Assembly (NCBI GenBank): GCA_014323785.1
Contig: JACONJ010000020.1
Location: forward strand, 62,391 to 126,390
Source of the DNA: Paracoccaceae bacterium
GTDB lineage: Bacteria > Pseudomonadota > Alphaproteobacteria > Rhodobacterales > Rhodobacteraceae
Length of the DNA: 64,000 nucleotides
Reading direction: 5' to 3'
The position numbers were made by a program, and so were the translations under genes. Under the pieces are notes generated by a model. That model was given only the letters and a program-made list of their open reading frames with translations. It did not search any database and had not been told where the DNA came from. Positions 2,656 to 51,890 of the stretch are shown here, piece by piece (within the stretch, counting starts at the first letter, position 1; every line of letters starts with the position of its first letter).

Positions 2656-4362
2656 TCACTCGGCGCGACGCCAGTCCATGATGTTCCACAGTTCGGTGTC
2701 CCAATCCGACATGGCGATCCCTTCCAGGCTGTTGGCATGGGCCGAGGGGTTGCCACGGTGGACCAGCGGGATGATCGAGTAACTTTGCACCAGCATATCG
2801 TTCATCTCCCGCGCCAGGCGGCCACGCTCTGCAATATCCGCGGTCTGTGCCATTTCGTCAACCAGCGCGTCATAGGCGGGATTGCAGAAGCGTTGGATGT
2901 TGGCCCCCTGCCATTGCGTATCCGGGCGTGGCCATTCATCGTAAATCCAGTTTGCCATGTAAGCCTGCGGATCCACACCAGGGAAATTGTTGGTGTACAT
3001 TTCGATATCGGCATAGAATTTCTGGAATGTGTCCGGGCTGGCCGGATCACCGCCAAAGAAGACCGAAGCGTCGATGTTGCGGAGCTCGGTGTCGATGCCG
3101 ATTTCGGACCACCACTGCTTCACCAGTGCCTGGGTATCCTGCCGGACGGCATTGGTGGAGGTCTGATACAGCACCGAGATCGGAACACCCCCGGCCTCGC
3201 GGATACCGTCGCCGTCGGTATCAAGATACCCGGCTTTATCCAGCAGCGCATTGGCACCGGCAATATCCTGTACCAAACACGCATCATTGGCAGTAGAGGC
3301 GTAAAGTTCCGGTGCCGGCAACACATTACAGGTCGGCTGCCCGCCCGCACCATAGCCGATCTCCACCAGAAGTGCCCTGTCAATGGCCATCGACATGGCC
3401 TTGCCGACCACCGGATCGGTCAGGAACGGGTGCGGCCCGGCCTCGGCGGTTGAGCGGATGTCACCTAAGGCGGCATCGGGATTGGTCTGGTTCAGGTGCA
3501 AACGCTCTACCGAGGTGCCGAAGGCACTCACGACTGTGCCGTTCCCCTGCGCTTCCATCTCGGCCAGGATCGTCGGGTCGATTTGCAGGTTCCAAGCATA
3601 ATCGAACTCACCCGTTTCCAGAACCGCCCGTGCCGCCGCTGCCGCATCACCGCCACCCTTGAAGGTCACGGTGCCAAAATACGGCCGGTCGGGAAAGCGG
3701 AAGTTTTCATTGGCCGAGAACGCTATCACGTCATTGGGACGGAATTCATCCACCACAAAGGGGCCGGTGCCAATCGGGCCAAAGTTGGCTTCGGTGCATT
3801 CCGGGGCCCGCGTGCCAAGGCACCCGGCGAATTGCGCAGCCTGGATCACCGGGCTTTCGGACCCGACGAAAGCGGTGTAGGGGAAGGGCGTTGGCGTGTT
3901 GAAATTCACCACAACGGTCCGCGCATCCGGTGTCTCGACGCTGCTAACACCGTCGAAAAAACTTGCTTGCGCACAGCCGCCTTCGGGGTGGGTGCAGTAT
4001 TCCCAAGTAAAGCGAAAGTCTTCTGAGGTGAGCGGGGTGCCGTCTGATCAGGTGATTCCGTCGCCGATGGTCCAGGTGATCGAGGTCAAATCCCCGGCCA
4101 CGCCGCCGTTTTCCACGGTCGGAATTTCGGTGGCAAGCCAAGGCACCATCGTGCCAGTATTATCGAACCGCGCCATGGACTCAAGCACGAGGGAGGCTGA
4201 TTCAACCTCTTTCGTGCCGCCCGACAGATACGGGTTCAGCGTCGATGGTGCTTGCCAGTAGATGATGTTGAGATGACCCGATGAACCGCGCTCGGCCAGG
4301 GCCGCTGCCGGGGCCATGGCCATTACGGCGACCGTTCCCAGTAAAAACGCTCCGATTTTCAT
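2656..4362 (-). pseudogene. Family 5 peptide ABC substrate-binding protein interrupted by an in-frame TGA
   Basis: ORFs 4048..4500 and 2656..3912 are one frame: ...ITWTIGDGIT*SDGTPLTSEDFRFTWEYCTHPEGGCAQ...; TGA at 4048-4050 replaces the Trp of the conserved WSDG motif; signal peptide from ATG 4362. Confidence 0.85.
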
Positions 4363-4493
4363 GGTGAATTTCCTTGTCCCAAGTGATGTCCGCGGGGCCG
4401 TATGCCCCGCCTGGGAATCATCGAACTTATTTTGCCCCGCAATTGTCAAGCCCAATGCTGCCACAGAGGCAAATGCTGCTTTGCCCGGTATGT

Positions 4494-4522
4494 TTGACAC
4501 TGGTTTGCCCCTGCCCTAGCAT
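4494..4522 (+). promoter_or_regulatory. Sigma70-like promoter for the ABC ATPase gene
   Basis: TTGACA (4494-4499), 17 nt, TAGCAT (4517-4522), 32 nt before ATG 4555. Confidence 0.6.
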
Positions 4523-4554
4523 CATAGGGCCACATCCCGGGAACAGGGAAACAC

Positions 4555-6375
4555 ATGCCTGACCAGCCGATTGTGCAGGTGCGCCAACTGCGCGTCGAAT
4601 TTCAGACCAGGGGCGGCACTGTGGTGGGGGTTGCGGATGCCTCCTTTGACGTGGGTTTGGGTGAGACTGTCTGTATCGTAGGTGAATCCGGATCGGGCAA
4701 ATCGGTGTCATCACTGTCGATGATGCGGTTGGTGGAATTCGGCGGCGGCATGATCGCGGGCGGAGAGATTCTGTTCAACCGCAAGGATGGCGATATCATC
4801 GACCTGGCCAGAACCAGCGGCAAAGAGATGCGCAAGATTCGCGGTAATGAGATCAGCATGATCTTCCAGGAGCCGATGACCGCGCTGAACCCCGTCTTTA
4901 CGATTGAACGGCAATTGGCCGAGGGTTTGCGGCAGCACAAGACTATGAACCGGGCCGAGGCACGGGACCGCGCATTGCAACTGCTCCGCCAGGTTCGTAT
5001 CCCCGAACCTGAGCGTCGGCTGCGGCAATATCCGCATGAACTCTCTGGCGGCATGCGGCAGCGCGTGGTGATTGCCATTGCGCTTGCTTGCGAACCGCGC
5101 ATTTTGATTGCCGATGAACCGACCACCGCGCTTGATGTAACGACCCAGGCCGAGATTCTGGCACTGATCGACCGGCTGAAGCGGGAAACCGGCACATCGG
5201 TCATGTTCATCACCCATGACATGGCGGTTGTGGCCCGCATGGCCGACCGCGTGGTGGTGATGTATCGCGGCAGCAAGGTAGAGGAGGGGCCGGTTGAACA
5301 AATCTTTGCCAGGCCCCGGCACCCCTATACGCAATCACTGCTGGCAGCGGTGCCGAAACTGGGCGAAATGCGGGGCAAGGCACTGCCCGAACCGATGAAG
5401 CTGATGGGGGCGGAAGCCGCCGCGGCGCGGCCGATCAAAGGTACCAATGAACGGCTGCTGAAGGTCGAGAACCTTGTAACGCGCTTTCCGGTCAGGGGCG
5501 GTTTGTTGCGCCGCACCATTGCTAATGTACACGCGGTCGAGGATGTCTCTCTGACACTGAACCGGGGTCAGACGCTTAGCTTGGTGGGTGAATCCGGCTG
5601 CGGTAAATCCACGGCGGGCCGGTCCATCCTGCGGCTGGTTGAGCCGATATCGGGCAGGATCGAGCTGGACGGCAGGGATATCATGGCACTTGGCCCCGCC
5701 GAACTGCGCAAGGTGCGCCAGGACATGCAGATGGTGTTTCAGGATCCCTTCGCGTCCCTTAACCCGCAGATGCAACTGGCCGCCCAGGTGGCCGAACCCA
5801 TGCAGAACTATCACACTGCCAGCTGGTCCCAGATTGCCGACCGGGTAGCGATGCTGTTCGACCGCGTCCGCCTGCCGCGGGATTTCATGTCCCGCTACCC
5901 GCATGAATTATCGGGTGGCCAGCGGCAGCGTGTGGCCATCGCCCGCGCCCTGGCATTGAACCCGAAAATGATCATCGCTGATGAGGCCGTCTCGGCCCTT
6001 GATGTGTCTGTACAGGCCGAGATTCTGAACCTGATGCTGGAATTGCAGGCCGAGCTGGGCCTTAGCTACCTGTTCATCAGCCACGATATGGCCGTGGTTG
6101 AGCGGGTCAGCCATAATGTGGGCGTGATGTTTCTGGGCCGGATCGTGGAAATGGGGCCGCGCCCGTGCATCTTTGAAAACCCGCAGCATCCCTATACCAG
6201 GGCTTTGCTTAGTGCGGTGCCGATTGCCGAACCGATGCAAGGAAAATACGAACAGAACTTGACCTTCAGGCCAATCCCCTCACCTGTTTATTCCCTGGAT
6301 CATAATCCTGCGCCGTCCGCGTATGCAGAGATTGCGCCGGGGCATTTCGTCCTGACAACGGATAGCGGATATTGA
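4555..6375 (+). CDS. Peptide ABC transporter ATP-binding protein with two fused NBDs (OppD-OppF fusion type)
   Basis: Two Walker A motifs (GESGSGKS, GESGCGKS), two LSGG signatures, HPYT C-terminal motifs. Confidence 0.95.
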   Translation: MPDQPIVQVRQLRVEFQTRGGTVVGVADASFDVGLGETVCIVGESGSGKSVSSLSMMRLVEFGGGMIAGGEILFNRKDGDIIDLARTSGKEMRKIRGNEISMIFQEPMTALNPVFTIERQLAEGLRQHKTMNRAEARDRALQLLRQVRIPEPERRLRQYPHELSGGMRQRVVIAIALACEPRILIADEPTTALDVTTQAEILALIDRLKRETGTSVMFITHDMAVVARMADRVVVMYRGSKVEEGPVEQIFARPRHPYTQSLLAAVPKLGEMRGKALPEPMKLMGAEAAAARPIKGTNERLLKVENLVTRFPVRGGLLRRTIANVHAVEDVSLTLNRGQTLSLVGESGCGKSTAGRSILRLVEPISGRIELDGRDIMALGPAELRKVRQDMQMVFQDPFASLNPQMQLAAQVAEPMQNYHTASWSQIADRVAMLFDRVRLPRDFMSRYPHELSGGQRQRVAIARALALNPKMIIADEAVSALDVSVQAEILNLMLELQAELGLSYLFISHDMAVVERVSHNVGVMFLGRIVEMGPRPCIFENPQHPYTRALLSAVPIAEPMQGKYEQNLTFRPIPSPVYSLDHNPAPSAYAEIAPGHFVLTTDSGY

Positions 6376-6530
6376 ACAAAGGCTTACATGAATAGAAACT
6401 GCCCTTATCACCTGCGCGACAGCCGCACCTTTAACTTGGTGATAATGCATTCATAACACCCCTCGACCAGTTCCAGAAGGGCACTTTGTGGCATACCTTC
6501 TGGACGTTCTGACAAAGGAGTAAACTGAAG

Positions 6531-7694
6531 ATGCCAGTCAAGAGCCGATTTGCTGAATTGCTGCCCGAGATCACCGCCTGGCGGCGCGACCTACATAAAC
6601 ACCCGGAGCTTCTGTTCGACACCCATCGTACCTCGGCCATTGTGGCCAGGAAGCTGAAGGAGTTCGGCTGTGATGAGATCGCCACCGGCATCGGGCGGAC
6701 GGGTGTTGTTGGTCTTATCAAGGGCAAATCAAACACTTCCGGCACGGTGATTGGCCTGCGCGCGGATATGGACGCACTGCCAATAACCGAGGAGACAGGG
6801 CTTGATTACGCCTCTGGCACGCCGGGCGCGATGCATGCCTGTGGCCACGACGGACACACCGCCATGCTGCTGGGGGCTGCGAAATATCTGGCCGAAACGC
6901 GGAATTTCGACGGCACGGTCGCGGTGATCTTCCAGCCAGCCGAAGAAGGCGGCGGGGGCGGCAAGGAGATGGTCGATGATGGAATGGTCGAGCGATTCGG
7001 GATCGATGAAGTCTATGGCATGCACAATTGGCCGGGTCGCCCGGTCGGGTCTTTCGCAATCCGGCCCGGTGTGTTCTTTGCCGCAGCTGATCAGTTCGAC
7101 ATCCACATCACTGGCAAGGGCGGGCATGCCGCCAAACCGCAGAACACCGTGGATCCCACTGTTGTGGCGGCCCATATGGTTCTGGCACTGCAAACCATCG
7201 CCAGCCGCAATACTGACCCGGTGAAGCAGATCGTCGTCTCTGTTACCTCGTTCGAGACCGGATCAAAGGCGCATAACGTCATCCCCGAAACCGTGCATTT
7301 GCGCGGCACCGTGCGGACGATGGAACCGGCTGTTCAGGATCTGGCGGAAAAACGCCTGAACGAGATTGCCGAGGGTACAGCCGCCACCTTTGGTGCGACA
7401 GTCCGGGTCTTATATCACCGGGGCTATCCCGTAATGGTCAATTCCGCGGAGCAGACAGAGTTCGCAAGACAGGTCGCCTCGGCCGTCTCGGGCAGTTGCG
7501 ATGATGCGCCCCTAGTGATGGGGGGGGAGGATTTTGCCTTCATGCTCAATGCCCGGTCTGGTGCCTATATCCTGGTGGGCAATGGCGATACGGCCCATGT
7601 TCATCACCCGAAATACAATTTCAACGATGAGGCGATTCCGGCAGGCTGTTCCTGGTGGGCCGGGATTGTCGAGCACCGGATGCCCGCCACCTGA
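6531..7694 (+). CDS. M20D family amidohydrolase (hippurate hydrolase-like)
   Basis: HKHPEL, RADMDAL, MHACGHDGH, FQPAEE, GGEDF motifs. Confidence 0.93.
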   Translation: MPVKSRFAELLPEITAWRRDLHKHPELLFDTHRTSAIVARKLKEFGCDEIATGIGRTGVVGLIKGKSNTSGTVIGLRADMDALPITEETGLDYASGTPGAMHACGHDGHTAMLLGAAKYLAETRNFDGTVAVIFQPAEEGGGGGKEMVDDGMVERFGIDEVYGMHNWPGRPVGSFAIRPGVFFAAADQFDIHITGKGGHAAKPQNTVDPTVVAAHMVLALQTIASRNTDPVKQIVVSVTSFETGSKAHNVIPETVHLRGTVRTMEPAVQDLAEKRLNEIAEGTAATFGATVRVLYHRGYPVMVNSAEQTEFARQVASAVSGSCDDAPLVMGGEDFAFMLNARSGAYILVGNGDTAHVHHPKYNFNDEAIPAGCSWWAGIVEHRMPAT

Positions 7695-7719
7695 ACGTCT
7701 GGCCAGAAGGGAATGTTCA

Positions 7720-8058
7720 ATGACGCACCGGGCCTTCAAGACGGTGATCATCACCGAGAAAGTCCTGGCTGATCGTGTGGCACAAGCCATAGAAGAAGCT
7801 GGCGGCACCGGCTACACGATCGTGGCCGCTGGTGGCAAGGGCAGCCGCGGCATGCGCCGAATGGATCGGGCGGCGGTGGTTGAGGCGTTCAGTAACATCA
7901 AGATCGAGGTCATCACCGCCGACCACAAGACCGCCGAACGCATCGCCGACCATGTGGCCGGTGCGTATTTCACCCATTACTCTGGCATCGCCTATATTGA
8001 AGAGGTAGAGGTGCTGCGCCAGCACAAGTTCGTTCAGCCCGGTGAGGTCGCCCGCTAG
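7720..8058 (+). CDS. sbtB: PII-like regulator SbtB
   Basis: VIITEKVL...GYT...GGKGSR...NIKIEV...AERIAD.VA..YF..YSGI.YI..EVL pattern of SbtB; RBS-like AGAAGGG; abuts sbtA. Confidence 0.85.
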   Translation: MTHRAFKTVIITEKVLADRVAQAIEEAGGTGYTIVAAGGKGSRGMRRMDRAAVVEAFSNIKIEVITADHKTAERIADHVAGAYFTHYSGIAYIEEVEVLRQHKFVQPGEVAR

Positions 8059-9056
8059 AACATGACCCCGGCCATGGCCACAAACAGCGGGATGCAGACG
8101 GCAATTGCAACCGGCGTTCCGATGCTGGTGGATGCGCCCAGATAGCTCGAGGGATTCGCTGTCGGGATCGCCGCGCGCAGGGTCGGGGGGCCCGATATGT
8201 CAGAGCTCGAGGCAGCCAGAACCGCCAGGATCACGGTACCGCCCGCGCTGAATCCGACCGTCAAATGCGCAAGATAGCCAAGACCAAAGCCCAGAACCCC
8301 ATGCGTGATCGGCGCGACAAAGGCATAAACCGCATACCAATGCGCCACGCGGCGCAATTCGCCAAGCCGCTGGTAAGCCTCCATTCCCATGATCAGCATC
8401 AGGACCGACAGAAGCCCCCGGAACAGCGGGTCATAGAAACTTTCAAAAACCCGCTCAGGCCGGGTCAAAAGCCCAAGGGCAAGACCAAGCAGAAGGGCCG
8501 AGAGTGCCGCACCCTGCAGGCTGTCCCTGATGATAGGCCAAAGCTTCACTTTGGTCGCGGTCCCGTCGCTTTGCCGTGCCTGGTGCAGATTGGCCAGGAT
8601 GATGGCCAGAAGCAGGGCGGGAATGTCCATGAAGGGGTAAAGTGCGGGGGCCCATGCCTCATAACTCAGCCCCTCTTCATCCATCACCACCATGGCGGCG
8701 GCTAGGGTAGAGGCACTGACCGCCCCAAACAGACCCGCCGTGGCGATGGCGTCATCGCTCCTCACACCGGGCAGCACGGCCAGCACAGTCCGCCCCGCGG
8801 CAACGATGATCAGGCCCAGCAGGATCGACATCAGCGCGGGTATCAGCAGTGCCGACAATTCCGCCTGGCGAATCTCTATCCCGCCACTGATCCCGATCCG
8901 CAAAAGCAGCATGAAGACCGCGAATTGATAGATCGCATTCGGGATTTGCAATTTGCTTCCAAAGGCGGCCAGCAGCATGCCACCGATCAGAAAGGCCAAG
9001 GTCGGGCTTTGAAACTGCGTTGCAAACCGCGTCAGAAAATCCAGAAACAGGTCCAT
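8055..9056 (-). CDS. sbtA: Sodium-dependent bicarbonate transporter SbtA
   Basis: QSPTLAFLIGGM, LFGAVS, YEAWAPALYPFMDIPAL, FYDPLFRGLL, AASSSDISGPPTLRA motifs; about 10 TM segments. Confidence 0.9.
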   Translation of the reverse strand: MDLFLDFLTRFATQFQSPTLAFLIGGMLLAAFGSKLQIPNAIYQFAVFMLLLRIGISGGIEIRQAELSALLIPALMSILLGLIIVAAGRTVLAVLPGVRSDDAIATAGLFGAVSASTLAAAMVVMDEEGLSYEAWAPALYPFMDIPALLLAIILANLHQARQSDGTATKVKLWPIIRDSLQGAALSALLLGLALGLLTRPERVFESFYDPLFRGLLSVLMLIMGMEAYQRLGELRRVAHWYAVYAFVAPITHGVLGFGLGYLAHLTVGFSAGGTVILAVLAASSSDISGPPTLRAAIPTANPSSYLGASTSIGTPVAIAVCIPLFVAMAGVMF

Positions 9057-9093
9057 GACCGCGCCTCCGCTTCGGGTTAAGTAAGAGGCGGGG

Positions 9094-10104
9094 TCAGCCC
9101 CCGGTATGGCTCATATGACGCGAAATCTGCCCCCCCGCCTTCTGCCGCGAATAGTCGAAATCATGGCCCTTGGGCTTGCGCGCGATGGCGGCACGAATGG
9201 CACCTTCCAGTACGGAATCATCCGCCGAGGCCCGCAACGGTGTACGCAGATCGGCCATATCTTCTTGACCCAGGCACATGTAAAGATTTCCGGTACAGGT
9301 CAGACGCACGCGATTACAGCTTTCACAGAAATTGTGGGTCAGGGGGGTGATGAAACCGATCTTCTGTCCGGTTTCCCGCAGCTGCACATAGCGGGCGGGC
9401 CCACCGGTATGCGCGGCCATATCGATCAGGGTGAATCGCCCGGCCAAACGCGTGCGCAGGTCTTTGAGTGACCAGTATTGATTCAACCGGTCCTCACGGC
9501 CCAAATCGCCCATGGGCATGACCTCGATAAAGGTCAGATCCATGTCGCGGGCAGCACACCAGGCCTGCAGATCGAACACCTCATCCTCGTTGATCCCTTT
9601 CAGTGCGACGGTGTTGATCTTGACGCGCAACCCGGCATCTTGTGCCGCATCGATCCCGCGCAGCACCTGCGGCAGGCGACCCCGACGGGTGATTCTGGCA
9701 AATTTTGCCTCATCAAGCGTATCGAGCGAGACGTTCACACGCCGTACACCAGCAGCGGCAAGATCGCCTGCGAAGCGTTCCAACTGGCTGCCATTGGTGG
9801 TCAGCGTCAGTTCTTTCAGCGCACCGGAGTCCAGATGCCGGGTCATCGCCCGGAACAGGGTCATAATATCCCGCCGCACCAAGGGCTCGCCCCCGGTAAC
9901 CCGCAGTTTGCTGACCCCAAGCCGCACAAAGGCGGAACACATGCGATCCAGTTCTTCCAGCGTCAGAAGTGCCTTCCTGGGCAGAAAAGTCATGGTCTCT
10001 GACATGCAGTAGACGCAGCGAAAATCGCAGCGATCCGTTACCGAGACGCGCAAATAGCTGATGGTGCGAAAAAAGGGGTCTATCAAGGGTGCGGGCGTGT
10101 CCAT
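9094..10104 (-). CDS. moaA: GTP 3',8-cyclase (molybdenum cofactor biosynthesis)
   Basis: CDFRCVYC radical SAM motif, TGGEP, CESCNR..C, terminal GG; start placed at [11 protein letters not shown]. Confidence 0.95.
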
Positions 10105-10653
10105 GGGGCAAAACATAGGGGGCAATCGGGGCCGGGGCAAGGGCCGACGCGCCCGTTGATAAGCCGTGTGGATGCATCCGGTATGGCAATCCTTGTGTGA
10201 TGTGCGCGGGGTGTATACCTTCATCGAAACAGCACCAGCGGGGGCGAATTGCGAAAAATTTACGGACCGTCAAAAAACTGTTGCAAACTGCCGGGCGGAT
10301 ATGGTCAAGTGTGGAAAGGTCCGTGCGAATCGGGTTAACTTCCCGAGGTTCAGTGCCAAAATAACAAGGTAACGTAGCAAGGCGGCACGCACGAAACAAG
10401 GGAGAGGACGAAGAGGAGTCAAACCCGAAGACTCGCATGAAGGGTGTGTATGGTTGATACCCCACTTGCAGTGCCGTGTTGACTTAAGGCCCCGAACCCC
10501 TCCCAACATGCGCCTCCTTATTTCCCCACTCTTATTTCGCACGATCCTGCCAGGTTCCGTAAATCTTCTGTTGTGTTACAACTTGCCCCCCTTCGTAAAT
10601 CCCTGGATTTATGCAGCGGGAGACAGAAACCTTTTGAAAGCACGGCCAAGCCC

Positions 10654-42067: not shown

Positions 42068-42115
42068 GTGCTCCGTTAAGTACTCCAAACCCCACGCCAG
42101 GAAGCCGTTGTGGGG
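42068..42115 (-). promoter_or_regulatory. SAM/SAH riboswitch (Rhodobacterales class) in the metK leader
   Basis: Minus strand CCCCACAACGGCTTCCTGGCGTGGGG...GGAGCA before ATG; the CACAACGGCUUCCUGGCGUG core and SD-pairing GGAGCA match the SAM-SAH motif. Confidence 0.85.
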
Positions 42116-42153
42116 CCTTGAGCACGAACATCTACGCCCAACCGTACCGGGGG

Positions 42154-45433: not shown

Positions 45434-46450
45434 CTACCCCGGCGGTGCATCCTTGTTATAGGCTTCGATGATCCTGGCGACCATCGGGTGCCGCACCACA
45501 TCCTTTGATGAAAAACAGGTGAAGCTGATCCCGCTGACCCCCCCTAAAATCCGCTCGGCTTCAACTAGGCCGCTGGTCACGCCGCGCGGCAGGTCGATCT
45601 GGGAGCGGTCACCGGTGATCACCATCCGGCTGCCCTGGCCCAGCCGGGTCAGGAACATTTTCATCTGCATCGATGTGGTATTCTGTGCCTCATCCAGCAC
45701 CACACAGGCGTTGGACAATGTCCGCCCCCGCATGAAGGCCAAAGGGGCGATCTCGATCTGCTGTTCCCCGAGCAGCCTGGCCAATTGCTTGTCCGGCAAA
45801 AAATCGCTCAGCGCATCGTAAAGCGGTTGCATATAGGGATCAACCTTGTGCTTCATATCGCCGGGCAGAAAGCCCAGTCGCTCACCCGCTTCCACCGCCG
45901 GGCGGCTCAGGACAATCTTGTCCACATGGCCACTACACATGCGGTTCACCGCCACGGCAACGGCCAGATAGGTCTTGCCCGTACCCGCCGGCCCGATACC
46001 AAAGGTCAATTCGTGGCCGTAAAGTGCGCGGACATAAGCTTGCTGCGTCTGCGTGCGCGGCTCCACCGTTTTCTTGCGGGTGCGAATTTCGGTATGCCCA
46101 ACGGCAGTGCCCCTGAACATCCCGATCTGGCCCGCGTTCCATGCGCCGGTATCCCCGGCGGAATTGCCAAGCCGCACCGCCGCATCGATATCGCCGGGTT
46201 CAAGGCCTTTACCCGCCCTGACCCTTGCATACAGCATGCGCAGAACCTCGGCGGCAGCAGCCCGCCCCTTGCCCAGCACTGCCAACTGGTTCCCGCGCCG
46301 CAGGATTTGGACCGCCATCAGGTGCTCAACCCGGGCAAGGTTGCGGTCAACCTCACCACAAAGGTCGCGCAGCAGGCGGTTATCCGGGAATTCGATCAGC
46401 AGTTCCAAGGGCGCATCAGCAGGGGGTGCAGGCAACGGCGACAGATGCAA
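45434..46450 (-). CDS. phoH: PhoH-like ATPase (YbeZ)
   Basis: GPAGTGKT, RPAVEAGE, PLAFMRGRT, DEAQN, VRHP. Confidence 0.93.
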   Translation of the reverse strand: MHLSPLPAPPADAPLELLIEFPDNRLLRDLCGEVDRNLARVEHLMAVQILRRGNQLAVLGKGRAAAAEVLRMLYARVRAGKGLEPGDIDAAVRLGNSAGDTGAWNAGQIGMFRGTAVGHTEIRTRKKTVEPRTQTQQAYVRALYGHELTFGIGPAGTGKTYLAVAVAVNRMCSGHVDKIVLSRPAVEAGERLGFLPGDMKHKVDPYMQPLYDALSDFLPDKQLARLLGEQQIEIAPLAFMRGRTLSNACVVLDEAQNTTSMQMKMFLTRLGQGSRMVITGDRSQIDLPRGVTSGLVEAERILGGVSGISFTCFSSKDVVRHPMVARIIEAYNKDAPPG

Positions 46451-46514: not shown

Positions 46515-46542
46515 ATTGTATCCAGTTTATCAAGAACGTCAA
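46515..46542 (-). promoter_or_regulatory. Sigma70-like promoter for the phoH-ybeY-corC-lnt operon
   Basis: Minus strand TTGACG, 16 nt, TACAAT. Confidence 0.5.
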
Positions 46543-46593
46543 GCCATTCCCGGAACTTGCGCGGATGTCATGCCGCAATCGCCGCATGCCGTG

Positions 46594-47706
46594 CTATTCT
46601 TGATACTGATAGTACGAGGGGCTATTAGGCTGGATATGGTTGCTACCCTTCTGCTGGTCTAGTTCTCGGTCGTCATCATGGTTGAACATCGAAACAACAA
46701 GCCACATGACAACTGCCGTTGTGACAAAAGCACCAACAATGGCAAGGGCAAAAGGCCATTGGGGAAAGTGCCGTTCGATCACCTCGGGCAGCCCTTTCAT
46801 CCCCTGGGCAGGGGCAAAACGCCGCTGGTTAAGGTGCCGTTCCGGTGCGGGGGGCTCGTGCCGCTTACACAGAAAATCAACCTTGCGCTCTAATATCGCA
46901 ATGTCTGTCCGTAATGTCGTCTCAATGTCTGTCACTATCTCCTTAACGGCAGCCAGAAGTTCCCCATTCCCGGACCCTTGCACTGGTTCCCCGGATTCAT
47001 GCACCGGCTCCTCCGGGGCAAGGGCGTTCCCGGGGCTTTGTGCAGAGTGTAACGCCTGTGCCGCATCCTTTGCGGCATGGAATTCGGTGCGCACCCCAAG
47101 GAGCGCCTCATCATCAAAAGGTATGGAAGACGGCGTTGGAGTTTCAAAAACCAGAAGTGCGGTGTGATGCGCCCCATACCGAAAGTTGAGGGCCTGAAGC
47201 GTAGTCAGATTTTCCCATTCAGTTTGGGACAGATGAAGCGCAAGAATCTCTCCCCCGACCACCTGCCATTCCATCGCCCGGTCCGACCGGCTTTGCCCGA
47301 CGATTCTGTGCCATTGAAGGGTTTCACCGGCACCAAGAAGTGTGCGGGCCTGCGCCATCAATTGGGCGATGGGATCACCCAATTCGGACCAGTCGCCGAA
47401 CTCGGAATGCGCATCAATCGGCACCGCAACCGCCGCACCGTAAAAGCCCCGCCGGTTCTGGGCATCGCGGCACGGGGAAAGGGTACCGACAAGGGTAATC
47501 CCTTGGACGGTCCGGGCGTCCTGAAGCCTGCGGGTGAATAAGGCGGTCTGTCCTGCAGCAAGGTGGTCAAGTACCCCGCCGCGCCGACGATCAAACTCAT
47601 AACAGGCGACGGGGGCTTTGGCAAAAACGCCGTTGCCCTGTGCGACCAGCCCCCGTTCCGTCCCAAAGATCGCATGGCCCAGGATCGGTGTTTTGGCGTC
47701 TGTCAT
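46594..47706 (-). CDS. Hypothetical protein with globular N-terminal domain, coiled segment and C-terminal TM anchor (putative GTPase partner)
   Basis: ATG overlaps the GTPase stop (ATGA); N-term GHAIFGT...RDAQNRRGFYGAAVAV; helix LLAAVKEIVTDIETTLRTDIAILERKV; TM WPFALAIVGAFVTTAVVMWLVVSMF. Confidence 0.75.
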   Translation of the reverse strand: MTDAKTPILGHAIFGTERGLVAQGNGVFAKAPVACYEFDRRRGGVLDHLAAGQTALFTRRLQDARTVQGITLVGTLSPCRDAQNRRGFYGAAVAVPIDAHSEFGDWSELGDPIAQLMAQARTLLGAGETLQWHRIVGQSRSDRAMEWQVVGGEILALHLSQTEWENLTTLQALNFRYGAHHTALLVFETPTPSSIPFDDEALLGVRTEFHAAKDAAQALHSAQSPGNALAPEEPVHESGEPVQGSGNGELLAAVKEIVTDIETTLRTDIAILERKVDFLCKRHEPPAPERHLNQRRFAPAQGMKGLPEVIERHFPQWPFALAIVGAFVTTAVVMWLVVSMFNHDDDRELDQQKGSNHIQPNSPSYYQYQE

Positions 47707-48885
47707 TTCCAGTTGACCCCGCCCTTAAGCCGCTGAAAAAAGGTTGGCCCCGGTGATTTGCCCTCAAACTGCTCGATCAGCCAGAACATGATTCCCTCAA
47801 TATGGGTAAAATCCGGTTGAATCAGCCGCGGTTCCCCGCCGTCCACCTCAATCCTGCCAAGATGAAGCGGTGAAAGGAGTGTCCTTTGCGGATGCGGCCA
47901 ATGCTGCCAGAGCTGATAGGTCTCTCCACAGAAGCGGTTAAGGTAGTCACGCTGCGCAGCTTCGGTAAAGCTGGCATAACCTGTCTGGCCGTCGCTGGAC
48001 CCGAATTCCTGAAGACGCACAAGGGACTCCTCGGGTTTAGAGATGATCACCGCAAGCGACATGCGATCTGTCAGGCCCGGAAAGGTCTTTTTCAGGTACG
48101 CCACCAGGGACGCGAAGAGCTGGTCGTTTTCCTCAATATCCGGGCTCAGCATCAGAACAAAGCAGAACCTGAGGTTACGATTGCTCAGATAGGCGTGCAA
48201 AACAGGGGCCATTTTGGGTGCGGCATCGGGCTTTGGCAGAACCTCTTGCAAAAGCTCGCCCGACATTTCAAGAAAGCTGAAGTTTGATCGGATTTTCCTC
48301 CCGGACGTGGTGCGCGTCTCAATCACGACCTCACGAATGTCGCTTTCGCCGGCAGGGGGTTGGATCCGGAAAGCGGCCTTCGATCCATTGGCCTTTCCAT
48401 GCATTGATGATGGTTCTGCCCACCCAATCCGCGCCTCCGGGGCGGTCGGGAACGGATATTTCCGTCCGAAAGGGGCCTTCGTTCATAAGGTAGTTCATCA
48501 ACATCCACTGAAACGTGGTTTTCCCGCTTCCGGGAAACCCGAAGGAAAAGATGTAATTGCCGGATACCCTCGCCTTAATCTCGTCAACTGCCAGGCCATC
48601 CTTCGCAACTTGCCGCACACGCCGAAGATACCCGGGGCGCCCATCGAAAGCAGTATCTTGCGGAGGGTCTCGCCGCAAACTCGCCCCACTATTTTGCCCG
48701 GGGCGTCCATCGACAGCAGTATCTTGCGAAGGGCCTCGCCGCAAACTCGCTCCACTATTTTGCCCGGGGTGCCCATCGGAAGCAGTATCTTGCAAAGGTA
48801 TCAGGCCAAGTGCCTCGGCTTCCGCGCGTCCGGGGCGACCATCGAAAGCGGTGTCGCGCAAAGGGGGGTTGTTCTTCTCATCCAT
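47703..48885 (-). pseudogene. TRAFAC-class GTPase gene split by a +1 frameshift
   Basis: G1 GFPGSGKT, G2 region FPDPT, G3-like EMSGE, G4-like SKPE; removing one G from G5 at 48355-48359 joins ORFs 48331..48885 and 47703..48404 into 393 aa; AAGGAGG RBS. Confidence 0.8.
48631..48860. repeat. 66-bp coding tandem repeat (about 3.5 units, 22-aa period)
   Basis: Units start at 48631, 48697, 48763, 48829; protein xxDTA(F/S/V)DG(R/H)PG four times. Confidence 0.9.
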
Positions 48886-48897
48886 TGTTCGCCCTCC

Positions 48898-49971
48898 TTA
48901 GCCGCCGATGACGCGCCGCTTGCCAGCCCCGCGCACGGTGGCGGGTTTCACGGCACGTTCAAGTCGACCGCGACCAAACAGGGCAAAGGACAGAAGCAAA
49001 GGCAGGACATCCACAACAGAGGCAAGAATCAAAGATACCCCGGTTGCCAACGGGTTCGGCATCTCGCCAAAACCATTCTGGAAGGCGTAGACGATCTCTC
49101 CAAGGCGACCCAGGGTTGGATCTATATTCTGATGGGACACGCTGTCATCCTCGGGAAGCAGGGCGTTTGCCGCACGCTCAATATCAGAAGAGATGGCGGA
49201 CATAACACCAAGGGCATCCAGCCCGCCTTTCGTCAGAAGAATCCGCTCCGTGTTGTCGTATTCAAGAAGGGCCGAATCAATGCGTCGAATAAGGGCTTCA
49301 ACCGCCGGGGTTTCGGTGGTCTCAAGCGTCAGCCTCAGGATGTCATTGGCGGCGTCCTTGTAGCGGGTATACCAATTGTTGACGGTGTCTGCGTCTGCAC
49401 CGGGCGCAGGAAGGGCCAGGTTGGTGATCGAACTCCCAAGGAGGCGCTCGATCTCCTCCATATGCCCACGACATCGCTGGCCGCAGCCGGGGCGCAGCGG
49501 GTCGCTGATTTGCTCGTAAAGGTTCTTAAGTTCAACCTGGAGATCCGCCTCTAGCTTCCGGGCCCACTCCATGGTCTCCATGCCATCAAGGGCTGTCCGT
49601 GTGGCAACAAGATTGTCCCGAAAGACCCCGATCTGCTCGGTGACAGTACTCTCTGTCACGTCGTCACGCATAAAGTTGGAATAGAGGAAGTTGAAATTGG
49701 ACGCGATTGAAAAGAACGCGGCCACCACCCAGATGAACAAGGGCAGGTAGAAACGCCGCTCCTGAGCCCGAAAGTAACTGATCGTGGCGTCCATTACAAG
49801 GACGAACGCCATCAGCAGAACCACCAGGGGCAGGGTGACCTCCTCTGCGGTGCGCAACAGGCCCCCATAAGACAGATACCCCGAGATGCTCACCCCAAGA
49901 CAAAGGATGAGCGCATAAGCAAAAATGATGAAAACAGGTATGTGTTCCTCAAACAGAAAAGACCGGTTTAT
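48898..49971 (-). CDS. Membrane protein: three N-terminal TMs, long helical domain, C-terminal TM (DUF4407-like topology); canonical start missing
   Basis: Frame is open 26 codons upstream of GTG 49893 and encodes a further TM (IPVFIIFAYALILCLGV); CGQRC cysteine pair; C-terminal TM LATGVSLILASVVDVLPLLLSFALF. Confidence 0.7.
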   Translation of the reverse strand: MNRSFLFEEHIPVFIIFAYALILCLGVSISGYLSYGGLLRTAEEVTLPLVVLLMAFVLVMDATISYFRAQERRFYLPLFIWVVAAFFSIASNFNFLYSNFMRDDVTESTVTEQIGVFRDNLVATRTALDGMETMEWARKLEADLQVELKNLYEQISDPLRPGCGQRCRGHMEEIERLLGSSITNLALPAPGADADTVNNWYTRYKDAANDILRLTLETTETPAVEALIRRIDSALLEYDNTERILLTKGGLDALGVMSAISSDIERAANALLPEDDSVSHQNIDPTLGRLGEIVYAFQNGFGEMPNPLATGVSLILASVVDVLPLLLSFALFGRGRLERAVKPATVRGAGKRRVIGG

Positions 49972-50071
49972 TCAGACCATTCACAGCACAGGGGCCTTGG
50001 CTCCTTGCAACATCAGTCAGCATGATGGGGTTTCCCATTTTTGTGGTGCGCCCGAATCGAAACGTCAAGAC

Positions 50072-50100
50072 CTTCTAAATGTCCTGGGCAGGGGCGTCAA
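50072..50100 (-). promoter_or_regulatory. Sigma70-like promoter for the inserted three-gene operon
   Basis: Minus strand TTGACG, 17 nt, TAGAAG. Confidence 0.5.
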
Positions 50101-50239: not shown

Positions 50240-51574
50240 TTACGGTGCAGTCTGGATCAATTCACCCGCCAGAGAATTGGCGGAACTGCCGGTGAGCCTG
50301 ACCGGGGCGATTTGCCCGCGAATTGCCTTGGGTGCCGCGGCGTGGACAGCATGCAGATATTCCGACTTGCCAACCTGTTGCCCCTCCAGCCGCCCCGGCT
50401 TCTCAAACAGAACCCGGACCACGCGGCCCACCATCGCCTCTTGCGTGGTGCGCTGCTGTGCGCCCAGCAGTGCCTGCAGCCGCCGCAGCCGGTCATCGGC
50501 CTGTTCCGGTGGAACCGGGGTGCGCTCTGCCGCCGGGGTGCCGGGGCGGGCAGAGTATTTGAAGGAATAGGCCTGTCCGTAACCCACCGTCTTCACCAAA
50601 TCGAGCGTAGCCTGGAAATCCGCCTCGGTCTCTCCGGGGAAGCCAACGATGAAATCCCCCGACAGCAGCAGATCAGGGCGGGCAGCGCGGATGCGCTCAA
50701 TCAAACGGATATATGCCTCGGCAGTATACTTGCGGTTCATTGCCTTCAGGATGCGGTTGCTGCCAGCCTGCACCGGCAGATGCAGATAAGGCATCAATTT
50801 GTCGCAATCGCCATGGGCGGCGATCAAATCCTCATCCATGTCATCGGGATGCGAGGTGGTGAAGCGAATACGGTCCAGCCCATCGATCCCGGCCAGGGTT
50901 CGGATCAGCCGCGCCAAGCCCCACTCCTGACCTTCTGGCCCCTCTCCGTGATAGGCGTTCACATTTTGGCCCAGAAGCGTGATTTCCCGCACACCCCGCG
51001 CGACCAGCTCGCGCGCTTCGTGCAAGAGCTGCCGCACCGGGCGGGAAACCTCGGCCCCGCGGGTGTAGGGTACCACGCAGAAGGCACAGAACTTGTTGCA
51101 GCCTTCCTGCACGGTCAGAAACGCCGCGGGCCCGCGCGGGTGTTTGCGCACCTTCGGCAGGTGCTGGAATTTGTCCTCTTCCGGGAAAGCCGTGTCACGT
51201 GCAGTGCCGCCCGCCTGCACCGCTTCCACCATCGCGGGTAGCCGGTGATAGGTCTGCGGCCCCACCACCAGGTCCACCATCGGCTGGCGGCGCATGATCT
51301 CCTCCCCCTCGGCCTGGGCCACGCAACCTGCCACGCCGATTTTCAGATCGGGCTTTGTGTGCCGCAGGGGGCGGAAACGGCCCAGCTCGGAATAAACCTT
51401 TTCCACCGCCTTCTCGCGGATATGGCAGGTGTTAAGCAGAATCATATCCGCGTCATCCGGGCGGTCTGTTTGCACATATCCCTTCGCGCCCAGGGCTTCG
51501 GCCATGCGCTCACTGTCGTAAACGTTCATCTGACAGCCATAGGTCTTGATGTAAAGTTTCCTGGTCTCGGACAT
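50240..51574 (-). CDS. miaB: tRNA-2-methylthio-N6-dimethylallyladenosine synthase
   Basis: [31 protein letters not shown] domain; start placed at MSETRKLY. Confidence 0.96.
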
Positions 51575-51890
51575 TTTGTACTCCGGTTCTTGCTCCGGCA
51601 CGAGTGCTGGCCCTGGCCCATAGCGCATGGAGGCGCAGCCTTCAACGGACGGGGCCACCCGGTGTTAATTATCCTGCGGCAGATCGCGCATGACAAAGTT
51701 GTAATGGCCCTTGGGCAGCAGCCCCTGGCAAAAGCCTCATCGCACTGGTCAAGACGTTTCCCAGGGACTGGCGGCAATGAGGGCGACAACGGCGCATTCT
51801 TGTTCTTCCCTTTTTGCAATGTCCGCCCCATCAAGGAGGCTGCTGCCTTCGCCACTCAGAAAATCTGCGAGGGCCATAGGGAGTGACAAA

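Follow-up and report, generated by a model that had tools for sequence, protein, structure and literature searches.

What is an operon that encodes two orphan membrane proteins and a GTPase doing between miaB and phoH? We addressed this question in a 64,000-nucleotide stretch of DNA from a Paracoccaceae bacterium (GenBank assembly GCA_014323785.1, contig JACONJ010000020.1, positions 62,391 to 126,390 of the forward strand), which we refer to as the window. A preliminary description of this DNA had proposed that the three genes form a compact, single-GTPase member or relative of the TRAFAC double-GTPase (DO-GTPase) systems, possibly serving in defense. Our analysis reveals that the three genes, hereafter the cassette, are a rare, horizontally mobile, and co-inherited module. 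We read it as a horizontally acquired, self-contained module that is built around a membrane-tethered GTPase switch, serves in biological conflict, and survives here as a decaying remnant, and we regard this reading as evenly poised between right and wrong.

The locus runs on the minus strand in the order miaB, gene 1, gene 2, gene 3, phoH, ybeY, corC, and lnt. Gene 1 (48898-49941) encodes an inner-membrane protein with four transmembrane helices and 347 amino acids in its ancestral form, comparable to the ~346 amino acids of its homologs; the open reading frame (ORF) listed for it (48898-49893) starts at a GTG and has 331 amino acids. A 12-nt gap with a GGAGG inside it separates gene 1 from gene 2 (47703-48885), which encodes a TRAFAC-class GTPase. 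Gene 2 is split by a frameshift into two ORFs, 48331-48885 (184 amino acids) and 47703-48404, and encodes 393 amino acids once repaired. Gene 3 (46594-47706) encodes a partner protein of 370 amino acids, and its ATG overlaps the TGA of gene 2 as ATGA. The preliminary description of the locus holds in these respects: the ORFs and their family matches confirm three co-directional minus-strand genes between miaB and phoH, gene 1 has four hydrophobic helices and a CGQRC, gene 3 is coupled to gene 2 and ends in one C-terminal transmembrane helix, and the motifs GFPGSGKT, WIEGRFPDPT, LEMSGE, SKPE, and CGQRC are all found in the sequence.

Gene 2 encodes a DO-type TRAFAC GTPase. It carries a Walker A motif (GFPGSGKTT) and a Walker B/G3 motif (FLEMSGE), and the glutamate of the latter (hhhhE-x-S-G-E; E206 of the repaired protein) is conserved in 17 of 17 sequences, with the equivalent residue, E137, conserved in 49 of 49. 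A conserved Walker B glutamate is a feature of the DO-GTPases, a family within TRAFAC (Kaur et al., 2020; PMC7159879). The Pfam DO-GTPase1 model (PF19975) is matched by 15 of 17 relatives at E < 0.1 (best, 8.4e-7) and the DO-GTPase2 model (PF19993) by 6 of the 17, while a precomputed PF19975 match exists in only two gene 2 clusters. The window protein itself scores 17.2 bits against DO-GTPase1 (E = 0.0033), below the cut-off of 27. The proposed kinship to the double-GTPase systems is thus supported by the Walker B glutamate and by the DO-GTPase1/2 matches, but not by a Pfam score above threshold in the window protein.

Structure comparison points to the same class. The AlphaFold (AF2) model of the closest intact homolog, P0001, has a predicted local distance difference test score (pLDDT) of 92 and a predicted template modeling score of 0.87. 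Its best Foldseek match in the PDB is YcjX (6nz5; E = 3.6e-5; template modeling score [TM-score], 0.41), followed by a Nog1-type ribosome-biogenesis GTPase, the dynein light intermediate chain, MglA (6izw and 6h17), atlastin, and G-alpha. Since all of these top matches are TRAFAC GTPases, gene 2 belongs to the TRAFAC class, as had been predicted from its P-loop. Sequence homology to the YcjX/YcjF pair was considered and rejected: hhalign compares the GTPase profile with Escherichia coli YcjX at a probability of 9%, over the P-loop only, and genes 1 and 3 with YcjF at 0.4%. The preliminary description had also pointed to aspartate-to-glutamate changes in both G3 and G4. The Walker B/G3 glutamate is invariant, but the G4 change is no feature of the family: the Lys-Pro of SKPE is conserved, whereas its final position is taken by E, Q, K, R, G, Y, or V. 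The threonine of FP..T is likewise replaced by asparagine in about a third of the sequences, and the base specificity is therefore unreadable from the sequence.

We assessed the distribution of the cassette by searching for relatives of each gene. Among 5.8 billion proteins, gene 1 and gene 2 each belong to families of 51 clusters at 90% identity. A word-index search with gene 3 retrieved only the query, and its 49 relatives came from an exhaustive search of 1.84 billion representatives. The three families are thus small and similar in size. Wherever the contig allows the order to be assessed, gene 1, gene 2, and gene 3 follow one another on one strand, in 17 genome loci (L001 to L017) and in seven further loci reached through individual proteins. 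Overall, about 22 loci keep the genes tightly coupled in this fixed order, which confirms that they form one unit in other genomes too. The hosts include Paracoccaceae, other Rhodobacterales, Rhodospirillales, Hyphomicrobiales, Chromatiaceae, and Ectothiorhodospiraceae, together with a few metagenome-assembled genomes (MAGs) binned elsewhere; the loci come from Alpha- and Gammaproteobacteria, and the neighboring genes vary by locus. Among the strains with orthologs, Cereibacter sphaeroides (LAZ40_02130-02135), Thiohalocapsa marina DSM 19078, and Halorhodospira abdelmalekii DSM 2110 are cultivable. Many hosts of the 17 loci are purple phototrophs (Cereibacter, Rhodobacter, Rhodopseudomonas, Halorhodospira, Thiohalocapsa, and Ectothiorhodospiraceae). 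Judging from the isolate names, other host MAGs presumably came from sponge and from soda-lake or hypersaline samples.

None of the other cassette loci adjoins miaB or phoH, indicating that the cassette is self-contained and mobile, and no fourth recurring gene was found among 81 flanking ORFs. In the contexts examined, the cassette maps to no housekeeping or secretion operon, in agreement with the preliminary description. Some of the annotated neighborhoods contain genes of the restriction, defense, or mobile type, namely Z1, HATPase_c_3, Dcm, and Vsr in one case; GmrSD, HNH, and DUF932 in another; an integrase with AlpA, DUF3631, and GmrSD_C; Dcm with a transposase; and SbcCD, ImuB-DnaE2, and RES. 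From this gene context we infer an anti-phage or anti-competitor role.

The two partners of the GTPase are orphans with transmembrane helices, which places the triad at the inner membrane. Gene 3 consists of an N-terminal alpha+beta domain (residues ~8 to 215), a long coiled coil, and a transmembrane helix (residues 320 to 338). Its conservation is limited to the first ~215 residues, where G26, D81, R85, G87, and G90 are invariant, and its structure model has a pLDDT above 90 over residues 10 to 220. The top six Foldseek matches of gene 3 in the PDB are structures of TagF (9t0n, 6iz8, and 2qnu; E = 3.8e-4 to 1e-2). PAS/LOV and Cache sensor domains come next, and a Foldseek search of viral structures found nothing. 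TagF had been named as a candidate relative, and it does head the structural matches, but these are weak (TM-scores of 0.2 to 0.3) and have no counterpart in sequence: TagF appears neither among the families listed in the Pfam scan of gene 3 nor among the best 60 of its 174 PDB profile matches (E up to 10). The modeled fold therefore offers a weak lead on what kind of domain gene 3 may contain, short of membership in the TagF family. The 46 gene 3 relatives scanned match no consistent Pfam family, and two of them weakly match DotU.

Gene 1 has transmembrane helices at residues 1 to 19, 36 to 54, 64 to 82, and 304 to 322 of the 347-residue form. Between the third and fourth helices lies an acidic helical domain of ~220 residues with an invariant DPLRPGCGxxCRxH motif. 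The loop between the second and third helices (+3/-1) and the C-terminal tail (+8/-1) are basic, and by the positive-inside rule the large domain is predicted to be periplasmic. No relative of gene 1 was found in Pfam, PHROGs, or the PDB, and none of 14 gene 1 relatives matches GASH, FNIII, or any consistent Pfam family. DUF4407, which had been suggested for this protein, is matched neither by these 14 relatives (E < 0.1) nor by the window protein (E < 1).

Searches for a known system returned little for any of the three genes. The window ORFs find only P-loop-level matches in Pfam, NCBIfam, PADLOC, and PHROGs, and PDB sequence-profile searches with all three families find only P-loop or coiled-coil noise. 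PADLOC yields no meaningful match for any of the three genes; its mad8 model, from the MADS defense system, is weakly matched by 10 of 49 GTPase relatives (best, 6e-4), which may be due to the P-loop alone.

A distant version of the triad provides a bridge to described systems. In a Hyphomicrobiaceae MAG (L017; extended operon at 3978-10457), a gene 1-like gene (E = 2e-16) and a GTPase gene (E = 5e-20; DO-GTPase1, 7.7e-4) are followed by a gene for a 750-amino-acid protein. The gene 3 profile aligns with the N terminus of this protein (hhalign, 95%; E = 3e-8), beyond which come a long coiled coil, a transmembrane helix, and an extracytoplasmic C-terminal region. Three overlapping or closely spaced downstream genes on the same strand encode, in order, an HSP70-like protein, a DUF1353 protein, and a caspase plus FGE-sulfatase (FGS) protein. 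HSP70, caspase, and FGS components are named among the effectors or partners in GTPase-centric systems and related ones (Kaur et al., PMC7159879). L017 therefore suggestively ties the triad to the effectors of conflict systems. The compact three-gene form has no effector component in the neighborhoods examined.

Several observations weigh against reading the cassette as a conflict module. The four window ORFs match nothing in PADLOC-DB v2 at E < 1, and none of 46 gene 3 relatives matches the GAP1 Pfam models (E < 0.1), which gives no support to GAP1-N1/N2, the candidate relatives that had been named for gene 3. The likeness of gene 3 to TagF is weak in structural terms (TM-score, 0.18 to 0.31; root-mean-square deviation, 6 to 8 Å), although the Foldseek probabilities are 0.75 to 1.0. 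The transmembrane anchor of gene 3 is absent from the Halorhodospira/Ectothiorhodospiraceae branch (L012, L013, L015, and L016), in which gene 3 is also shorter (272 to 330 amino acids). About half of the annotated contexts consist of plain metabolic genes, and no copy of the cassette was found on plasmids or phages (tblastn of the GTPase) or on viral contigs (scan). The suggestive link to caspase and HSP70 comes from a single distant MAG locus, the predicted periplasmic topology of gene 1 is based on hydropathy and charge bias, and the support for function as a whole consists of sequence, structure models, and gene context.

The main rival explanation is that the triad is an accessory module for envelope or membrane stress, akin to YcjX-YcjF or the psp-linked DO-GTPases, that would help to keep up or reshape the inner membrane; bacteria whose intracytoplasmic membranes are elaborate would be one example of its hosts. 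We consider this explanation unlikely. Among PDB structures, the GTPase does match the stress protein YcjX best, yet the profile similarity to E. coli YcjX does not extend beyond the P-loop, and genes 1 and 3 have none to YcjF. Proteins of the psp-linked DO-GTPase family have been predicted to function in membrane-related stress, in a paper that cites the YcjX structure beside Kaur et al. (PMC11237479); psp genes are near no cassette locus. Many hosts are purple phototrophs with intracytoplasmic membranes and several contexts are unrelated to defense, but the cassette is sporadic and its location differs in every genome. The single named record from Cereibacter sphaeroides is a single-sequence cluster, decay of the cassette is frequent, and L017 joins the triad to caspase-FGS genes, all of which argue against a stress module.

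The copy in the window is very likely a decaying, pseudogenized, and non-functional remnant, because the start of gene 1 has been lost and the GTPase is both frameshifted and expanded by a repeat. The preliminary description had overlooked two of these lesions, the gene 1 start and the gene 2 repeat. In an alignment with homolog loci, the gene 1 start codon is ATG in the homologs, TTG in L018, and ATA in the window (49939-49941, minus strand), where it lies 4 nt after a GAGGA Shine-Dalgarno sequence. Homologs read ATG CCx xTT TTC ATC in this region, compared with ATA CCT GTT TTC ATC in the window. The homologous proteins begin with MPxFII, and the same frame in the window, upstream of the listed GTG, reads IPVFIIFAYALILCLG. 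As the aligned start lies 5' of the listed GTG, the listed ORF lacks most of the first transmembrane helix.

The frameshift in gene 2 is a 1-nt insertion (+1) in a C5 homopolymer (48355-48359, minus strand), after which the upstream frame stops at 48331-48333. Deleting one C from this run fuses both ORFs into 393 amino acids, and the repaired protein aligns end to end with intact homologs of ~320 amino acids; across the junction, GRFPDPTPAGESDIREV in the repaired protein corresponds residue for residue to GRFPDPTATGENAVREV in the homologs. The disordered N terminus of gene 2 additionally contains a 66-bp in-frame tandem repeat (48631-48864, minus strand; Tandem Repeats Finder period 66, 90% matches; repeat family D1, four copies), which encodes ~3.5 units of 22 amino acids (QDTAxDGxPGQNSGASLRRxP). 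The homologs lack this repeat, and the alignment indicates that the window copy carries about three extra units. Decayed copies of gene 1 also occur elsewhere, with a frameshift in L002 (~7049-7058) and an in-frame stop in L006 (6995-7963). A lesion in gene 1 is common to all three damaged cassettes, which would fit gene 1 as a costly or toxic component.

Alternatively, the lesions could be sequencing or assembly errors, or they could be tolerated through an ATA or GTG start and a +1 shift, leaving the cassette functional; we find this improbable. The frameshift site reads CCC-U, a context that favors +1 slippage of tRNA-Pro, as CCC-N is a +1-prone proline site, and low-level read-through to the full-length GTPase may be possible. 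No homolog, however, has a frameshift at this site. The GAGGA Shine-Dalgarno sequence before the ATA is intact, but ATA initiates very poorly. Gene 3 is intact, whereas the cassette as a whole has two independent lesions plus the repeat expansion. The sequence is of metagenomic origin, yet three assemblies (JGI 3300017830, ENA ERZ23486280, and Logan SRR3667357), which stem from related samples and may share reads, are 100% identical over 4.1 kb with the lesions included. The cassette in the window is probably silent or strongly attenuated.

The weakest alternative, that the triad assists or regulates a type VI or other secretion apparatus, with gene 3 as a TagF-like brake and the GTPase in place of the TssM NTPase domain, draws on the TagF matches of gene 3, on the two relatives that weakly match DotU, and on the adjacency of tagF to tssM and tssL in Pseudomonas aeruginosa, but it is highly improbable given the low TM-scores, the lack of any Pfam TagF or IcmF match, and the absence of type VI or other secretion genes from all of ~10 annotated contexts and from the 81 flanking ORFs.

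Returning to the conflict module, a more specific and less likely version is an envelope-surveillance immune system of a kind not recognized before, in which a periplasm-facing four-helix sensor or effector would be gated by a DO-type GTPase, and a membrane-anchored, TagF-like (profilin/longin-like) regulator would control the nucleotide state of that GTPase. In our main reading, gene 1 would expose its helical cysteine-pair domain to the periplasm and act as a sensor, a membrane effector, or both. Gene 3 would sit on the cytoplasmic face of the membrane and use its TagF-like/profilin-like domain to regulate which nucleotide state the GTPase adopts, much as MglB acts on MglA and as GAP1 is proposed to act on the DO-GTPases, with the invariant Arg85 and Asp81 as candidate contact residues. 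GTP binding or hydrolysis would then set the threshold at which a signal from the envelope evokes a response at the membrane; the most plausible signal would be phage attack or some other invasive insult. The output of the compact form could be the membrane proteins themselves. In the L017-type variant, the HSP70-like, DUF1353, and caspase-FGS genes would represent the kind of effector associated with NTP-dependent conflict systems (Kaur et al., 2020).

The insertion site in the window provides a separate view of the history of this copy. The cassette (57.0% GC) is below the adjacent genes (61 to 66%), and its GC content at third codon positions is 58 to 66%, compared with 70 to 74% in the flanking genes. 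The visibly lower GC content that had been remarked on thus stands relative to the adjacent genes, but among segments of equal size in the 64-kb stretch the cassette ranks no lower than the 12th percentile. We compared the intervals between miaB (50240-51658, minus strand; TIGR01574, 1.6e-147) and phoH (45434-46450, minus strand) across 80 metagenomic miaB loci. In more distant relatives (58 to 63% MiaB identity) the two genes are 15 to 100 bp apart, whereas in the closest relatives (66 to 80% MiaB identity) the gap is mostly 1.1 to 2.1 kb and holds a gene for an OmpA-C-like lipoprotein and a gene for a small lipoprotein (for example, L029 7262-8250 and L032 6508-7410). Both lipoproteins share the motif IW(I/V)DPDGC.HW..DDG.EGY. 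The view of miaB and phoH as normally contiguous is therefore correct for the distant relatives but not for the closest ones, in which these two genes intervene. None of the closest relatives has the cassette in this gap, and no remnants of their OmpA-like or small lipoprotein genes were found in the window. As the gap varies among relatives and none contains the cassette, this lineage has a variable miaB-phoH site, to which the cassette is foreign. The intergenic DNA downstream of miaB and upstream of phoH is too diverged to align with that of the closest relatives (80% MiaB identity).

The two intergenic regions contain a 15-nt imperfect direct repeat (family D19; 13 of 15 identical) that brackets the cassette, with one copy at 50061-50075 and the other at 46535-46549; by our estimate, ~0.04 such pairs are expected by chance in two intergenic regions. 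The second copy overlaps the -35 box of a promoter-like TTGACG-16-TACAAT site upstream of phoH (46515-46542). The cassette had also been credited with its own promoter, TTGACG-17-TAGAAG. This motif is present (50072-50100, minus strand), but its status as a promoter is unsupported: the -10 match is weak and lacks the final T, a promoter scan passed over it, and the region holds no more promoter-like sites than chance predicts (1 found versus 1.7 expected). No minus-strand terminator was found after miaB, and read-through into the cassette is therefore possible. Farther along the same strand, a SAM/SAH (S-adenosylmethionine/S-adenosylhomocysteine) riboswitch (RF01727, 51 bits) is located at 42069-42119, just beyond lnt and ahead of metK; this riboswitch family is largely confined to Rhodobacterales and so hints at the taxonomic origin of the window.

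In this genome, the cassette amounts to decaying DNA of horizontal origin, lodged in the variable interval that separates miaB from phoH. More broadly, the DO-GTPase systems were predicted to be conflict systems in 2020, and we found no report in the literature of any being tested. The cassette is the smallest version seen so far, with one GTPase, one regulator-like partner, one membrane protein, and no accessory enzymes, and its orthologs in cultivable strains offer a tractable entry to GTPase switching and to a TagF-type domain paired with a GTPase. If the tentative envelope-surveillance scheme is true, the triad would be a minimal prokaryotic counterpart of the eukaryotic membrane switches formed by longin or roadblock proteins and small GTPases, and it would give the TagF-type fold its first functional context outside type VI secretion.

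How does the cassette compare with known systems? The MglA-MglB pair of Myxococcus similarly combines a small TRAFAC GTPase with an adjacent small alpha+beta regulator, a roadblock-fold GTPase-activating protein, and gene 2 has MglA (6izw and 6h17) among its leading structural matches. The parallel goes no further than analogy: gene 3 is not homologous to MglB, and MglAB lacks membrane components. TagF (DUF2094), the post-translational brake of type VI secretion, supplies the top six PDB matches of the N-terminal domain of gene 3 (E = 4e-4 to 1e-2), but the TM-scores are 0.2 to 0.3, there is no sequence-level match and no type VI secretion context, and gene 3 has, beyond this domain, a coiled coil and a membrane anchor. 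YcjX (DUF463) and YcjF of E. coli and Shewanella resemble the cassette in that the GTPase model has YcjX (6nz5) as its best match in structure and the GTPase gene is paired with a gene for an inner-membrane protein in both. Unlike the cassette, which is rare and mobile, YcjXF is widespread and fixed in position; YcjX has no profile similarity to the GTPase beyond the P-loop (hhalign, 9%), and YcjF (DUF697) is unrelated to genes 1 and 3 (probability, 0.4%).

The DO-GTPase/GAP1 systems (Kaur, Burroughs, Iyer, and Aravind, 2020, eLife; PMC7159879) share the most features with the cassette. Both have a TRAFAC GTPase with a Walker B glutamate, a partner protein encoded immediately downstream of the GTPase, and a separate all-helical or transmembrane component, and both are mobile gene neighborhoods, many of them acting at the membrane; the distant relative L017 adds the HSP70-like and caspase-FGS genes typical of those systems. 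The cassette differs in having a single GTPase without zinc ribbons, one that scores 17 bits in the window against a Pfam cut-off of 27. Its partner has no detectable GAP1-N/M/C and instead combines a TagF-like domain with a coiled coil and a transmembrane anchor, its helical component, a membrane protein with four helices, matches neither GASH nor FNIII, and the compact form has no enzymatic effector. Because of the single GTPase, the sub-threshold Pfam score, and the lack of GAP1 and of GASH/FNIII, the cassette is best read as a compact variant of the GTPase-centric conflict systems that belongs beside, rather than within, the published DO-GTPase/GAP1 systems.

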